Program-made: the position numbers and the translations under genes
Part shown: positions 33,655 to 56,300 of the stretch, in pieces
Numbering within the stretch: position 1 is the stretch's first letter
Layout: every line of letters starts with the position of its first letter
Source of the DNA: Bacteroidales bacterium
GTDB taxonomy: Bacteria; Bacteroidota; Bacteroidia; Bacteroidales; 4484-276
DNA length: 64,000 nt
Direction: 5' to 3'
Assembly (NCBI GenBank): GCA_035647615.1
Contig: DASRND010000003.1
Span: forward strand, 3,135-67,134
Notes under the pieces: generated by a model
Told to the model about the DNA's origin: nothing
The model's input: the letters and a program-made list of their open reading frames with translations, nothing else
Database searches by the model: none

Positions 33655-33790
33655 TGCCAGGCTTTGATTCCAGGTTCTTTTTAAACAAGTTTTAAATAGC
33701 CATCTGTTACAATTTATTTGTTTAAGTAATGTTAATTAATATAATTTTGCCCACTTAGTAATTGAATAGAAATCATTTAATAAATTGAGA

Positions 33791-43991: not shown

Positions 43992-44555
43992 ATGATCATC
44001 AGAAAAGCAATACCATCAGATGCAGAGCGCATCGTCGCCTTTTTGCTTTTGGCAACGGAGGAAATTGTATACAAATTTATCGGCGAAAAGGATCATGAAA
44101 AAGCGAAGGCGTTTTTACTTTACTTTATTAAAAAAGAAAACAACCAATATTCGTATCAAAACTGCCTGGTGGCCGAAATTGATAACGAAATGGTGGCAGC
44201 GGTTGCTTTTTATGACGGCGCCAGGTTGGCGGCATTGCGACAGCCAATAATAGATTACATTCGGGACAATTTTAATAAAACCTTTGAACCTGAAGATGAA
44301 ACCAGCAATGGTGAATTTTACATCGATTCGATAGGCGTTAGCCTTAGCCATCGGGGAAAAGGCATCGGTGCAAATCTGCTGCAGTTTCTGATTGATGAAT
44401 ACGTGAGCAAGAAACGGAAAAACCTGGGTTTGCTTGTTGATGAAGAAAACCCCAAGGCAAAGAAGCTGTATTTGAAACTGGGTTTTAAAAGTGTAGGGAA
44501 AATTGTTTTAGTGGGCAAGCAGATGGAACATCTTCAAATCAAAGGGGGAGAATAA
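43992..44555 (+). CDS. GNAT family N-acetyltransferase
   Basis: 187 aa. Acetyl-CoA motif IGVSLSHRGKGIGANLL. Confidence 0.8.
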   Translation: MIIRKAIPSDAERIVAFLLLATEEIVYKFIGEKDHEKAKAFLLYFIKKENNQYSYQNCLVAEIDNEMVAAVAFYDGARLAALRQPIIDYIRDNFNKTFEPEDETSNGEFYIDSIGVSLSHRGKGIGANLLQFLIDEYVSKKRKNLGLLVDEENPKAKKLYLKLGFKSVGKIVLVGKQMEHLQIKGGE

Positions 44556-44724: not shown

Positions 44725-44753
44725 AAAACTAAAAAGGCGCACGATTGTGCGTC
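44725..44753 (-). terminator. rho-independent terminator for the HK-RR operon
   Basis: Minus strand: GACGCAC AATC GTGCGCC (5 perfect GC-rich pairs plus 1) followed by TTTTTAGTTTT. Confidence 0.5.
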
Positions 44754-45562: not shown

Positions 45563-45637
45563 GTAAATGATTTAGCAGTTTGGTAAAGCAAATATAACAT
45601 AGTTTTTAGTTTGATCAGAATCTCTGGTTATCAGTCA

Positions 45638-46936
45638 CTATTCGAGCGCATTTTGAGTGGGTGCATGAAAAGGCCAGAACAAAATAAAATTGCTCCCCTC
45701 ACCCTGTTTGCTTCTTACCTGGATATTTCCGGCATGAGCCTCTACGATTGTTTTTACGTAAAACAGGCCAATCCCAAAGCCTTTCACATCGTGTACGTTA
45801 CCGGTGGAGATGCGATGGAATTTTTTAAAAATGTGACGAAAATGTTCTTCGGCGATGCCAATACCTTTGTCCTGAAATGATATGAAAATACCCTTGCGGT
45901 TGCTGTGTGTCGAAATGATGATGTGTGGAGCCTCAGGTGAATATTTATTGGCGTTTTCCATCAGATTGCTAAGCACATTGGTGAAATGGTTTTTGTCGGC
46001 CTGTACGATGTAACCGGAAGCATTGAGTCGGTTTTGGATCACACCGTTACGGCTCGTAACTGTCACACGCAAGCTATCGGTGAGTTGCTCTATTAATTGA
46101 TGAACATCCACAGCTTCGGGATTAATTTTGTACTCGCCGCGCTCGAGCAAGGCCACCTGGAGCACCTGATCGGCCTGATTCCTCAGCCGCTGGTTTTCGT
46201 TGTAAATGATTTTAGCATAGTGATCTACTTTTTCGCTTCTGCTTTGAATCCCTGGCTTGAGCAGCATTTCGCTGGCCACCGAAATAGTAGCAATGGGCGT
46301 TTTAAGTTCGTGCGTCATATTATTAACATAGTCGGCTCTGAGCTGAGCGAGTTTTTTTTGCTGCAGCAACGATCGCGTCACATACCAGAAACCGCTGATG
46401 GCGATGAGCATAAAAAGTGCCGACAGCAAGATGTACAACAACATCTCGTTGAACAGATAGCGCTCTTCGTGAGGAAAATATACCGTGAGATAAAACTGTT
46501 CGATTTGGAAGATACAGGAGATAGGTTTCTGGTGACGCGAATTGATAAGTTGTTCTTTTATTGCTTCATCGCTGATTAAGATAAATTGGTGATTTTCACC
46601 ATCATAAATTCCATAATCATAGGAACGGAGTATCTCCAGATTTTGGAATTCAGTGGTAATAAGCTGAGTGATGAGTTCAGGATTGAGTGAGCGAATAAAT
46701 TGTGAGTGGAGGCTGTTTTTGTTTGGAGAGCTAAGATAGCGCGAAGCCAGAGCCGTATCGTTTTGCAGCGACATGAGCTGGTTTATTACGCGTTTCATGC
46801 CCAACCCAACATTCTCCCGCAACTGATCGTCTTTGGTTTCTAATGCGCTGGCAACCCAAAAGGTCTGCGTGAGAATTATCCCCGTAAGGGCAACCGCAGT
46901 TATGATGATTATGATAAAATAAAGTCGTTTTTGCAT
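45638..46936 (-). CDS. sensor histidine kinase
   Basis: 432 aa. Two TM segments flank a ~150-aa extracytoplasmic region. H-box MTHELKTPI, N-box LMENANKY, G-boxes DKGIGI and GFGIGL. Confidence 0.9.
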   Translation of the reverse strand: MQKRLYFIIIIITAVALTGIILTQTFWVASALETKDDQLRENVGLGMKRVINQLMSLQNDTALASRYLSSPNKNSLHSQFIRSLNPELITQLITTEFQNLEILRSYDYGIYDGENHQFILISDEAIKEQLINSRHQKPISCIFQIEQFYLTVYFPHEERYLFNEMLLYILLSALFMLIAISGFWYVTRSLLQQKKLAQLRADYVNNMTHELKTPIATISVASEMLLKPGIQSRSEKVDHYAKIIYNENQRLRNQADQVLQVALLERGEYKINPEAVDVHQLIEQLTDSLRVTVTSRNGVIQNRLNASGYIVQADKNHFTNVLSNLMENANKYSPEAPHIIISTHSNRKGIFISFQDKGIGIAEEHFRHIFKKFHRISTGNVHDVKGFGIGLFYVKTIVEAHAGNIQVRSKQGEGSNFILFWPFHAPTQNALE

Positions 46937-46974
46937 GCCTCAAAGTTACTGCTCTTCGGGTCTTTTTCCGGACA

Positions 46975-47013
46975 TTAACAAAACCTTAACAGCTTTTAAC
47001 AGCCTCTTAACAG
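46975..47013. promoter_or_regulatory. four phased direct repeats TTAACA(G/A), candidate response-regulator binding sites
   Basis: TTAACAA at 46975, TTAACAG at 46986, 46996 and 47007. Spacings are 11, 10 and 11 nt. They lie in the 154-nt divergent spacer between the HK start and the small Cys-rich ORF. Confidence 0.5.
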
Positions 47014-47032
47014 CTACCGTCTGACGCAGGTG

Positions 47033-47040
47033 TATGTTTG
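47033..47040 (+). promoter_or_regulatory. -7 promoter box TATGTTTG (TAnnTTTG) for the small Cys/Lys-rich ORF
   Basis: Exact consensus match 51 nt upstream of ATG 47091. There is no -33 TTTG; the fourth TTAACAG box occupies the -33 position. Confidence 0.45.
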
Positions 47041-47090
47041 CAGCATAATTATTCAGTCAAAAACATTTAAAAATTAAAAACTAAAACCTC

Positions 47091-47417
47091 ATGAAGAAAG
47101 TATTACTGATAATCGCCCTTGCCTTGTTCATCACCACTGGTGTTGTTACAGCAACCGAAGTACAGCAAGCTACAGCCAATGATTCTGAATTAATTGTTCA
47201 GGCTGACAACAATAATGATTTTGCATCACCGTTTATGGATAACGACAAAACTAAAAAGGACGCCAAGAAAAAGGACAAGAATGCAAAGAGCGCCACTAAT
47301 TGTGTAAAAGAAAATTGTAAAGAAACCAGTTGCAAGGAAGTATGCCCCGACAAAAGTGCTACCAAGTGCTGTGACGAAAGCAAAACAGCCTGCAATAAAG
47401 ATAAAGGTGAAAAGTAA
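47091..47417 (+). CDS. small secreted Lys- and Cys-rich protein (108 aa)
   Basis: Signal peptide MKKVLLIIALALFITTGVVTA, an acidic segment, a Lys-rich segment (TKKDAKKKDKNAK), then CVKENCKETSCKEVCPDKSATKCCDESKTAC (7 Cys in 31 aa). A strong terminator follows immediately. Confidence 0.65.
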   Translation: MKKVLLIIALALFITTGVVTATEVQQATANDSELIVQADNNNDFASPFMDNDKTKKDAKKKDKNAKSATNCVKENCKETSCKEVCPDKSATKCCDESKTACNKDKGEK

Positions 47418-47463
47418 TTTGTTAGAGAAAGAGAGAGATAATTTTTTCATTTCATTTTTTTGT

Positions 47464-47491
47464 CCCCGCCTCCCCGGCGGGGTTTTTTTTT
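47464..47491 (+). terminator. strong rho-independent terminator
   Basis: CCCCGCC (47464-47470) / GGCGGGG (47476-47482), 5-nt loop, then T9. Confidence 0.85.
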
Positions 47492-47613
47492 GTTAATCCC
47501 ACCACAATCTCCAAAAGGAAAAGAAGATTATCAGGCTGATTGCCAATAGCTGAAAGGTTTCTCAGGATCTGCTCCCAAAGGTTGGTAAAAGAGTACGCTT
47601 TTAATTTTCAGGA

Positions 47614-48066
47614 TTAATCCCGATTTTTGGTATCGATGATGAGCGTTACCGGACCGTCATTCAACAGTTCTATCTGCATGTTAGCGCCAAACTCACCCGT
47701 AGCGGAAGCCTTTCCGGTATCGTAGCTAATTTGGTTTACAAATTTTTCGTAAAGAGGAATAGCTGTTTCTGGTTTGGCCGCCTTGATATAGCTGGGGCGA
47801 TTACCTTTTTTGGTGGAAGCGTGCAACGTAAACTGGCTCACCACCAACACTTCTCCGTCTGTTTCGATAACGGATTTATTCATCACTCCTTCGGCGTCAT
47901 CAAAAATACGCAGCCGCGAAATTTTACCACTTAGCCATTCGATATCGGCATCAGTATCGGCCTCTTCGATACCCAGCAAAATGAGCAGCCCCGCGCCAAT
48001 GCAAGAATAGACGCTCCCACCGATGGTTACGCTGGCTCTTTGAACTCGTTGGATTACCGCACGCAT
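47614..48066 (-). CDS. dtd: D-aminoacyl-tRNA deacylase
   Basis: 150 aa. MRAVIQRV opening, SQFTL and GNRPS motifs. Confidence 0.9.
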   Translation of the reverse strand: MRAVIQRVQRASVTIGGSVYSCIGAGLLILLGIEEADTDADIEWLSGKISRLRIFDDAEGVMNKSVIETDGEVLVVSQFTLHASTKKGNRPSYIKAAKPETAIPLYEKFVNQISYDTGKASATGEFGANMQIELLNDGPVTLIIDTKNRD

Positions 48067-52863: not shown

Positions 52864-53322
52864 AAATTTCGATCTTACATAAATCAATTATACTATCACG
52901 AGCCAAGCAATTATGAATTTGGGTTTCGTGCATTCCTTTGTTTCTAATTTATTTTAATTATAAAATACAACAAGAAAAAGAAAACGTCGACTGATGGCAC
53001 ATTAATTGACACGCCCAAAGAACTAATTTAAAACCGTTTTTTAACAGCTTTCTCTATTTGTAAGTGTTTTAAATAATAATTTTATATTATTGAATATCAA
53101 AGATATAAATTTATCTTTTCAATAGTATCCATATAAACTGCGCCTCTCCTTTTGGATGATGTTAATATTCCATTAATTTAGCTGCCCAAAATATTTTAAC
53201 TAAGTTACCACTTTTTATTAACACTTGCTTAACCTCTAAAACCAAATTTATTTTTTAACATTCAGGATTTGTCAAAATTAACCCGGCAGTAATGGGGATT
53301 CTGTCGTTTGCAGAGTTTGACA

Positions 53323-56300
53323 ATGACTAAAAAAGGGGAAATCATGAATTTATTTTACAACTGGATTACCAGGGGGGTGATTTATGCCTTGGCGCTAGTA
53401 ATATGCACTTCAACCACACTCAACGCACAAAATTATTCTCAGCCATCTGGTGAACTAACTCAAGAAGAGCCTGGGGTTACTATTAACAGAATCAGAATTC
53501 TTGATTCTTTACTGCAAAATTACAATACCAAAGCCCCGTTTGTTTATCCTCCGGGATGGGACGTGCCGGTAAACACCGGAAATATTACCGGTGTGTACGT
53601 GGCACGTGAGGCCAAACCCAGCATCAACGGGATTCCGCTGAAGCAAAACGATGCTATAGGCGGCTTTTTCATCAATGACCAGGGCGAGTACCAGTGTGCC
53701 GGAGCCATTTATTGGCCTGACACTTCCGGGATAGTTTTTTCAATATTTGGCGACGATCCGCAAACACCTGTCAAAGAAGGTTTCGCATGGGGTGAAACCA
53801 TTCACTACAAGTTGTTTTCCTATGATCTTATGGCTGAATTCGATGTGGACGAAATTCAACTTAGTCCCGATTATTTGATGATTAATAAATGGTATCCACT
53901 TAGCCTGATCGGAATCGTAAAGATGAATTGTTATGAGGACATAATCGTTCGCGCCACAGCTGACAAGGAGTTTTTTTGCAATCAGGGTACAGCATTGCTG
54001 GATGCTGAAATCATCACCGGATTCGGGAACATCACTTATAGCTGGACCTCTGACCCTCCCGGTTTTTCCTCCTCACTAAAGAGTCCATCAGCAAACGTTA
54101 CCGAAAATACTGTTTTTAAGGTTCGGGCTTCTATGGGCAATGCTACCGCAAGCAGTATTATCCCCATCTGCATAAACCATTCATCCATGGTAGATGCCGG
54201 GATGGATATAGAGGTATGCGGTATCGATAGAATTTTGCTCGCACCATTAGCTCAGAATGTTTCCGAAGTTCAATGGGCAACATCCGGTGATGGCACTTTT
54301 GAAAATAGTAACGCAGCCAATACTTTTTATTTTTTTGGTGGAGGTGATCTGAATAATAGTGGAGTAACTCTCAATATCTCCGGCCTGCCATTGGCGCCTT
54401 GCACTGCTGTTGCTACAGATCAGATGGAGATAACACTTTTCCCGTCTCCTCAGGTTACAATCCCTCAAGGACTTTTCACCTGCCAGGAAATCCCTGTTGA
54501 TATTGAAGCAACAGCGACTAATGTTTCGGGACTTTTGTGGCAAACGGATGGTAACGGAACTTTTAGCAATCCTACCTCACTTGTTACAACCTACACTAAT
54601 GGCACATACGGAAATATGCATTCCTCTGTCCGGCTTACGCTTACCGGTTACGGACAGTCGCCTTGTGATGCTACTTTTGTTGACGAAACTTACCTCCAGA
54701 TTAATAAACCTGCAGTATGCTTTGCTGGAGTCGGTGCAACCATTTGTGCCAACGAAACCTACACCACCTGTGCTACCGCTTCTTATCAAAATACCGTAAA
54801 GTGGTCTACCAGCGGTGACGGCACCTTTTCTGACGACACCCAATTAATTACCACCTATACCCCCGGACCTAATGACAAAATCACAGGCAAACCACGTCTA
54901 ACCTTGTGCGTTACCTCTATTGCTCCGTGCACAGGATCCAAATACTCGAGGATGGATCTTTGGATTAAACCCGAACCGACAGTAAATGCTATCGATGATT
55001 TTGCCATCATCAACACTGATATAATTCCGCTTAATGCCACTGCTTCTTCCTATTCATCTTTACAATGGTCAACTTCAGGCGATGGAACTTTTGCCGAGGC
55101 TCAGCAAGCTGCTACAAATTATTATCCGGGACCGGATGATATCGAGATTGGTACCGTCATTCTCGGTTTACAGGCCAACCCGCTGGCACCCTGCGCCACA
55201 CCAGCACAAGATGAACTAATGGTTAGTCTTGTAGAAGGTGCTAAAGCCAATGCAGGCCCGGATTTAACGATCTGTGGTGCCACCACGGTAACTTTACAAG
55301 GCAGTGCCTCCAATTACGTTTCAGTGCTTTGGTCTACCTCGGGCGATGGCACCTTTTCCAACGCCAATCAACTGACAACGCAATACACCCCCGGAACTGA
55401 CGACGAAGCGTCCGGTGAGGTAGTACTAACACTCACACCCTTTGGTGAGCCACCTTTTGTAAACGGAAATCCTGATCACAAGACCGTGACTATCCTCCAA
55501 CCTGCAGTTGTGAATAAGATTATTGCGCTGACGGCAGTTTGTCAAACACAAGCAATAAATCTCTCGGCTACAGCCTCACATTATGCTTCTCTGATGTGGA
55601 CATCCTCCGGCAACGGGGCCTTTAACAACACTTCAATAATAAACCCGCAATATACTCCAGGAACGGTGGACATAGCCAATGGCAGCGTGGTGATTACCGT
55701 TACGGCAGCTTCGGTTGCGCCTTGTTCGGGCAATGCCACGAAGAGTAAAACGATACAGATAAAACATGCGCCTGTGGCAAATGCAGGAAACGACGTCACC
55801 GTTTGCCAGGGAACGCAAGTTCCGGTTAACGGAACTGCCCAGCACAATGGTAGTATCCTTTGGACGACAACAGGAGACGGCGTTTTTGCAAACCCGCAAC
55901 AATTAGCAACCAGCTATATTCCCGGAAACGGCGATGTGCAGTCAGGAACCGTAACGTTTACACTAACAGCAGCAGCCATACAACCATGTACAGTTTCTGC
56001 AGCAGATCAGCTTGTGGCTAAAATATTCAAAAATCCGGTTTGCAATGCAGGTATCGATATTGTTTCCTGCGAAAGAGAGCCCATTGCGATAAGCGGCACC
56101 GCAACCAACTATAATTCTTTGGTTTGGGAAACCACCGGTAGCGGCACTTTTGCAAACAAATATGCAAAGAACACAACTTATCATCCCTCCGATCAAGATG
56201 TAACAAATGGCGGCGTCACACTTACACTAAAAGCGCTGCCCATGACGCCTTGCCAGATAACCGCTGAGGATAGCAAGCTGATCACTTTATCGGTTTCGCC

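Follow-up and report, generated by a model that had tools for sequence, protein, structure and literature searches.

The window analysed here is a 64,000-nt stretch of contig DASRND010000003.1 from a Bacteroidales bacterium (NCBI GenBank assembly GCA_035647615.1, positions 3,135 to 67,134 of the forward strand). On its minus strand it encodes a two-component system, in which the gene for a sensor histidine kinase lies 75 nt upstream of the gene for a response regulator, and on the plus strand, divergent from this operon, a small secreted protein (Table 1). The spacer that splits the operon from the small gene holds an array of four TGTTAA direct repeats (boxes), which is the subject of this study. 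The kinase combines HisKA and HATPase_c domains with two membrane segments and a predicted periplasmic domain of ~140 aa, in which one cysteine (Cys140) is nearly invariant. In the small protein, a signal peptide is followed by a linker that is acidic and rich in Lys, and by a Cys/Lys-rich tail that ends in KDKGEK.

Read on the plus strand, the array contains TTAACAA at 46975-46981 and TTAACAG at 46986-46992, 46996-47002 and 47007-47013, with start-to-start spacings of 11, 10 and 11 bp (mean period 10.7 bp) over 38 bp, so that both the four boxes and the spacing are where a first-pass annotation of the sequence had placed them. That annotation had taken TTAACAG as the repeat unit; the repeats are real, but their conserved core is the hexamer TTAACA (TGTTAA on the kinase strand), and the seventh base varies in relatives. 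All boxes have one orientation and form direct repeats. A repeat search resolved the array into two copies of a 21-nt unit (46975-46994 and 46996-47015) with 80% identity and gave no matching inverted repeat. The array is far beyond chance expectation: the whole four-box pattern, with up to three mismatches allowed, has one match in the window against none in 100 shuffles, and the two-box site TGTTAA-N5-TGTTAA, with up to one mismatch, has 4 against 0.46 expected. The heptamer TTAACAG is found 6 times in the window versus 8.2 expected, and three of these six copies fall inside 28 bp of the array. An Rfam search of 46700-47700 returned nothing above noise, and the open reading frame (ORF) list of the window contains no mobile-element genes flanking the array.

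Promoters were read with the Bacteroidota sigma-A model, in which a -33 TTTG stands ~19–21 nt upstream of a -7 TAnnTTTG; hits of a sigma-70 promoter scan were disregarded because that model is not applicable to Bacteroidota. The array is flanked by two -7 boxes at the positions proposed earlier, TATGTTTG facing the small gene and TAACTTTG facing the operon, and, again as proposed, there is no TTTG between the array and either -7 box in the window. Across the whole window TAnnTTTG has 80 matches against 52 ± 7.5 expected from shuffles, an excess that fits general use of this promoter type in the genome. Numbering was taken from Flavobacterium psychrophilum, where positions -12 to -5 form the sigma-A -7 box (PMC9723704). 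On this basis, transcription of the small gene is predicted to start at ~47045, which would give an A-rich 5′ untranslated region (UTR) of ~46 nt, and the nearest box would occupy ~-38 to -33 from the predicted start.

On the minus strand the order is TAACTTTG-AGGC-ATG, with the A of the kinase ATG at 46936 and the -7 box ending 5 nt before the ATG, as noted before. Because the same numbering puts the start on the A of the AUG, the kinase mRNA is predicted to be leaderless, and the box of the array nearest to this start would lie at ~-44 to -39. A downstream start codon for the kinase is unlikely, since the N-terminus of the protein is conserved from the first residues. In two Bacteroidota species with mapped starts, leaderless or near-leaderless mRNAs account for ~4–5% of transcripts (PMC7366714, PMC9723704), and in Bacteroides thetaiotaomicron sensor-kinase mRNAs with 5′ UTRs under 10 nt have been reported (PMC7366714).

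Loci for comparison were collected through the kinase protein. Close loci were obtained by exact protein look-up of kinase homologues, and distant loci by searching a single genome of each species with an alignment of kinases (among the matches listed, all have a kinase identity of at most 46%). Because the motif played no part in this choice, these loci provide an unbiased test of conservation. The gene order of the window is kept in six loci (L081 and L083–L087; kinases 79–86% identical), and the small gene is still divergent from the kinase–regulator pair in four others (L088–L091; kinases 53–57% identical). All 11 loci from L081 to L091 (kinase 53–86%) carry four exact TGTTAA boxes at 11/10/11, with inter-box bases that differ. 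Ten distant loci (L001–L009 and L011, of which L005 is of the Draconibacterium type; kinase 37–44%, regulator 56–66% identical) have the array directly upstream of the kinase and on its strand with zero to two mismatches; seven of them (L001, L003–L005, L007, L009, L011) show the spacing 11/10/11, and in L006 and L008 one spacing is off by 1 nt.

The sole exception among the orthologous loci fetched via the kinase is L013, which has neither the array nor the small gene. L002 also lacks the small gene, and there the distal boxes have decayed to CGTTAA and AGTTAA, with the two kinase-proximal boxes and the kinase -7 box kept; the losses in both loci fit the operator model developed below. The conservation on which the first-pass annotation had staked its proposal is therefore found: boxes, spacing and both -7 boxes are kept at orthologous kinase–regulator pairs with the small gene, from 86% kinase identity to ~35–40%.

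Metagenome sequences were scanned with the exact pattern TGTTAA-N5-TGTTAA-N4-TGTTAA-N5-TGTTAA and no protein information, and the first 80 loci (of at least 80) were taken in. A kinase homologue lies ~75–150 nt downstream on the same strand in 52 of these 80, usually with the regulator next to it. The remaining 28 are satellites, phage-like regions or contigs that end straight after the array, and exact-pattern loci without a kinase were ruled out as regulon members, as they are satellites or phage-like regions. The main home of the pattern is this two-component system.

Pooling of the sources gave 92 non-redundant loci in which the array is followed by the kinase; the motif-scan loci among them cannot test the spacing of the boxes, which the scan itself required. 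Their layout is CAAAnnTA, 20–21 nt, four boxes, 26–28 nt, TAnnTTTG. The small-gene -7 box (read as CAAAnnTA) stands exactly 21 nt from the array in 77 of the 92 loci and 20 nt in 7, the window included, and the kinase-side TAnnTTTG follows the array after 26, 27 or 28 nt in 36, 23 and 10 loci, respectively (69 in total). Sequences between the boxes and between array and -7 box carry nearly no information. On the small-gene side 85 of 86 loci have no -33 TTTG at a usable distance, and on the kinase side 57 of 70, and the last box takes the -33 position of the small-gene promoter, as the first-pass annotation had stated. The first in-frame ATG comes 4–5 nt after the kinase -7 box in 33 of 70 loci, and most others have leaders of 16–22 nt; a leaderless kinase–regulator mRNA, proposed from the window sequence, thus holds by the published position of the -7 box, as a predicted start, with this geometry in just under half of the loci. 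The product of the divergent gene is small, rich in Lys and Cys and equipped with a signal peptide in 88 of the 92 loci.

The regulator had been described as OmpR-type. It is of the OmpR/PhoB type by Pfam, with a receiver and a winged helix, but it belongs to an RprY-like Bacteroidota family and is neither OmpR nor PhoB itself. Its best NCBIfam match is RprY (NF051850) with 283.1 bits, and because this is below the cut-off of 370 we call the system RprY-like and not RprXY. Regulators of array-bearing loci that were tested against the RprY model scored 262–288 bits, and those of a sister subfamily, whose recognition helix starts differently, 325–340 bits, also below the cut-off. When the most RprY-like regulator was used as the seed of a protein search, none of the regulators returned was named RprY, and 0 of the 10 checked reached the RprY cut-off. 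Several public annotations label the kinase 'PhoR'. A reading of the system as PhoBR with Pho boxes was rejected on the scores of the regulator (178 versus 270 for Bacteroidetes PhoB, and 147 versus 296) and of the kinase (110 versus 500 for Bacteroidetes PhoR, and 166 versus 334).

Several observations connect this regulator to the boxes. Regulators of array-bearing loci are 56–100% identical to that of the window, although the kinases drift to 35–40%, and they have the recognition-helix start YFIGRSMDVFI in common. The density of TGTTAA pairs on the kinase strand within 300 nt upstream of the kinase is ~124 times that in the rest of the same loci. We also compared recognition-helix subtypes, using only distant loci with well-placed kinase starts; many A-type kinases have longer N-termini. 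Regulators of the 'YFxGRS' subtype go with TGTTAA pairs in 20 of 28 loci, whereas those of the 'YFxARS' subtype do so in 0 of 11, 6 of which have [G/A/C]GTTAA(A) pairs at the same spacing. In this small and not phylogenetically independent sample, the first base of the half-site appears to track the recognition-helix subtype of the regulator encoded in cis. The site is co-conserved with the regulator family and the small gene across Bacteroidota, and the neighbouring regulator is the most likely binder of the boxes, as judged from these comparisons.

Tandem direct repeats about one helical turn (10–11 bp) apart, bound head to tail by dimers, are a hallmark of OmpR/PhoB-family regulators (PMC4173790). 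We consider it probable that the array is a shared operator of the neighbouring RprY-like regulator, which would activate the small gene and autoregulate its own operon. In the mechanism that we infer from sequence, from the identity of the binder and the dimer-of-dimers to the transcription starts and activation over repression, the 38-bp array would be the shared operator of a compact bidirectional control region, with its half-sites on one face of the helix. The phosphorylated regulator would bind the boxes as two head-to-tail dimers, a stoichiometry suggested by the four boxes forming two 21-bp units. The box at ~-38 to -33 would replace the missing -33 element, so that the bound regulator recruits RNA polymerase and turns on the small gene, which is presumed to be its main target. 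The other end of the array abuts the kinase promoter, from where the regulator would control the leaderless kinase–regulator mRNA; autoregulation of the operon, whether positive or negative, is likely.

The alternative that survives best keeps the same regulator on the same boxes and makes it a repressor of one or both promoters through occlusion of the -33 region. We think this unlikely, but it deserves real weight. The box nearest to the small gene overlaps the -33 position of its promoter, and ArcA represses from direct-repeat arrays that have a TGTTA core, an 11-bp spacing and an overlap with core promoter elements (PMC4173790). RprY of Porphyromonas gingivalis bound its own promoter in gel shifts and is probably a repressor (PMC3646045), and it is thought to repress nqrA, chaperone genes and rprY itself. 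Against repression, a small-gene promoter without TTTG in nearly all loci should be weak unaided, and the -7 box and the predicted start are left uncovered by the boxes, which are located upstream of both. Moreover, the strict spacing suggests protein–protein contact with RNA polymerase: a box-to--7 distance that stays at 21 nt (20 in 7 loci) throughout the phylum would be needed for such contact, but not for simple occlusion. Activation of the small gene is favoured because the -33 element is missing family-wide and this distance is fixed.

Other explanations fare worse. The boxes could be bound by a different OmpR-family regulator or an unrelated protein, with the adjacency being incidental; the link between regulator and DNA is indirect, and TGTTA-type half-sites serve several OmpR/PhoB regulators, ArcA among them. 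We regard this as quite improbable, given that the array stands immediately upstream of this kinase–regulator pair and on its strand in 92 non-redundant loci from diverse Bacteroidota, and that the half-site differs in its first base according to the recognition-helix subtype encoded in cis. That the repeats have no protein-specific role, being chance, DNA-bending phased A/T tracts or a mobile or satellite repeat, is very improbable: helically phased TTAA repeats could curve DNA and the exact pattern also occurs in satellites and phage-like DNA, but all six positions of each box are kept and the spacers are free in the protein-found loci, and the shuffles, the Rfam search and the flanking genes all speak against it.

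Several points weigh against a shared operator for activation and autoregulation, which we nevertheless prefer. No clear TGTTAA pair was found in 8 of the 28 distant G-type ('YFxGRS') loci. The occurrence of the exact pattern in satellites and phage-like contigs without a kinase means that the DNA pattern alone is not specific, and the pooled loci are phylogenetically related, so that their counts are not independent events. Regulation of the kinase promoter is less certain than that of the small gene, because its spacing varies by 2 nt and a -33 TTTG is present in 12 of 70 loci. Finally, RprY and ArcA are mostly repressors, which leaves promoter anatomy to carry the case for activation.

Among described DNA elements, the ArcA box of Escherichia coli comes closest to the array; in it, ATGTTAAAAA direct repeats with the TGTTA core are arranged 11 bp centre to centre, in 2–5 copies on one face of the helix (PMC4173790). 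ArcA-P and the presumed binder here are both OmpR/PhoB-family regulators. The regulator of the window scores 117.9 bits against an ArcA cut-off of 334, so it is not an ArcA orthologue, and the two systems differ in phylum and in sigma-factor promoter type. ArcA sites mostly overlap core promoter elements and repress, whereas the window array lies between two promoters of a kind that mostly lacks -33 elements.

As a system, the module resembles RprX/RprY of Bacteroides fragilis and P. gingivalis, likewise a Bacteroidota kinase–regulator pair with adjacent genes and the best curated match of the regulator, although the regulator stays under the cut-off of the RprY equivalog model. In both, a GNAT acetyltransferase gene adjoins the regulator gene. 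The GNAT gene of P. gingivalis, pat, shares a transcript with rprY whose start has been mapped 103 bp upstream of rprY, and Pat acetylates RprY (PMC6032018). The GNAT gene of the window (43992-44555, plus strand) lies beyond the regulator gene and convergent to it, and GNAT genes are found at the matching place in close relatives (L081 6610-7215, L083 6113-6724, L085 6558-7121). By analogy with P. gingivalis, the adjacency of the GNAT and regulator genes may be more than coincidence.

In its gene arrangement the module is similar to cpxP-cpxRA of E. coli, with the gene of a small exported protein divergent from an OmpR-family operon and boxes in the shared spacer. In cpxP-cpxRA, and more loosely in PhoQ/PhoP-MgrB, a small protein is induced by the regulator, which also autoregulates. 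Unlike CpxP/Spy or MgrB, the small protein of the window is Lys/Cys-rich and has no sequence relation to them (no Pfam or NCBIfam family). Where PhoB activates a promoter, Pho boxes (7-bp direct repeats that recur every 11 bp) stand in for the upstream promoter element, and CTGTTAA resembles the CTGTCAT of the Pho box. The target here, in contrast to the Pho system, is a small Cys-rich protein, and no phosphate-uptake gene is among the genes called beside the module in the window and the fetched close loci.

Table 1. Features of the kinase–regulator–small protein module. Positions refer to the window unless a locus is named.
Feature	Position	Strand	Basis
Divergent spacer, 154 nt, between kinase-regulator operon (-) and small ORF (+)	46937-47090		
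Sensor histidine kinase, 432 aa	45638..46936	-	ORF, Pfam HisKA + HATPase_c, homologues, alignment
OmpR/PhoB-type response regulator, 244 aa	44828..45562	-	Pfam Response_reg PF00072 + Trans_reg_C PF00486
Small secreted protein, 108 aa	47091..47417	+	ORF; signal peptide at N-terminus
Predicted four-box operator	46975..47012	- (kinase strand)	TGTTAA-N5-TGTTAA-N4-TGTTAA-N5-TGTTAA
TGTTAA boxes on kinase strand	47012-47007, 47001-46996, 46991-46986, 46980-46975	-	Sequence
-7 box TATGTTTG, small-gene promoter	47033..47040	+	Sequence; conserved distance from array
-7 box TAACTTTG, kinase-regulator operon promoter	46941..46948 (read 46948 down to 46941)	-	Sequence
Intrinsic terminator 3′ of small gene (GC-rich hairpin, then T run)	47464..47491	+	Sequence + terminator scan
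Terminator-like hairpin 3′ of regulator gene, probable operon end	44738..44751	-	Consensus scan only
OsmC-family genes in relatives	L081 2955-3365, L083 2957-3367, L085 2256-2666, L087 1856-2266, L089 2963-3370, L090 2987-3397		

The small protein has no family match in Pfam or NCBIfam, and public sources name it 'hypothetical protein' throughout; an identical copy is annotated in a Bacteroidales metagenome-assembled genome. Members of the family range from 45 to 124 aa (median 98) and contain 5 Cys (median) and ~21% Lys, and their alignment shows invariant cysteines. The protein is of low complexity and probably unstructured. In the window the small gene is monocistronic, as its hairpin-plus-T terminator indicates. 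In most relatives an OsmC-family (peroxiredoxin-like) gene lies 3′ of the small gene on the same strand; it is missing from the window and from its closest relative, L086, and in L002 and L013, where the small gene is missing, OsmC directly adjoins the kinase. Five loci of the Cytophagales/Microscillaceae type (L021, L028, L038, L041 and L064) have a degenerate second box (for example TTTCTAA), and the divergent gene there encodes a DUF1573 protein, ~135 aa long and containing a Cys-Gly-Cys motif (confirmed with Pfam for L038), in place of the Lys/Cys-rich protein.

Across 20 kinase homologues with 41–83% identity, the predicted periplasmic domain contains a nearly invariant Ser-Cys pair (S139, C140), which is notable because the partner protein is Cys-rich. 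The invariant cysteines of the small protein, Cys140 of the kinase, the OsmC gene in most relatives and the Cys-Gly-Cys DUF1573 partner are hints of a role in envelope stress, and we take the link of P. gingivalis RprY to oxidative stress (PMC3646045) as a further one. We tentatively raise the idea, doubtful as it is, that small protein, kinase and regulator form an undescribed envelope stress circuit, widespread in Bacteroidota, that would report periplasmic redox, electrophile or metal stress through an RprY-like regulator and an ArcA-like operator, with the thiol-rich protein as its main output and as a CpxP/MgrB-like feedback ligand of the kinase. The feedback on the kinase is pure conjecture, by analogy with those systems.

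A regulator acting on tandem repeats beside its own operon is a textbook mechanism; what is new is the conserved operator of an uncharacterised RprY-like system. To our knowledge, Bacteroidota have yielded binding motifs for very few classical two-component regulators. Our literature search found no description of TGTTAA repeats for any Bacteroidota regulator and no published motif for the RprY-like family, and the RprY literature searched gave no binding motif or footprint. The site supplies a sharply defined predicted operator (TGTTAA ×4 at 11/10/11), a defined layout, with a box in place of the -33 element, for promoters at which the unusual Bacteroidota sigma factor would depend on an activator, and a recurrent example of a predicted leaderless sensor-kinase mRNA. 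It further points to small secreted proteins rich in Lys and Cys, a widespread family, as the presumed principal target, and the motif can be used for regulon prediction in any complete genome that has the module. Its value lies in the depth and precision of the conservation, in a ready motif where such motifs are scarce, and in the thiol-rich partner protein.

Minor observations concern further promoter boxes and repeats. A TATATTTG -7 box at 45589-45596 (minus strand), inside the 75 nt that separate the kinase gene from the regulator gene, stands 27 nt before the regulator ATG and could be an internal promoter that serves the regulator alone. Exact four-box arrays were found on phage-like contigs (L112 1462-1499, L140 393-430, L128 535-572, L158, L116 1153-1190 and L159) with no kinase nearby, in conserved contexts common to several contigs, and these may be iterons or operators of unrelated elements.

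Elsewhere in the window, TGTTTA and TGTTAA stand 11 bp apart at 33719-33735, with one mismatch to the two-box site, over the core promoter of a gene for an OmpH/Skp-like periplasmic chaperone (region 33705-33749). The site is 6 nt upstream of a TAATTTTG -7 box at 33742-33749, and the ATG of the gene is at ~33792; it may be a second, repressed target of the regulator, with a chance expectation of ~0.5 such sites per window. A non-coding AT-rich stretch of ~480 nt (52864-53345), 3′ of a transporter gene, contains TTAACAG at 53041 and, on the minus strand at 53218-53234, a two-box site with one mismatch; a further TTAACAG at 53483 lies just past this stretch, within the next ORF.

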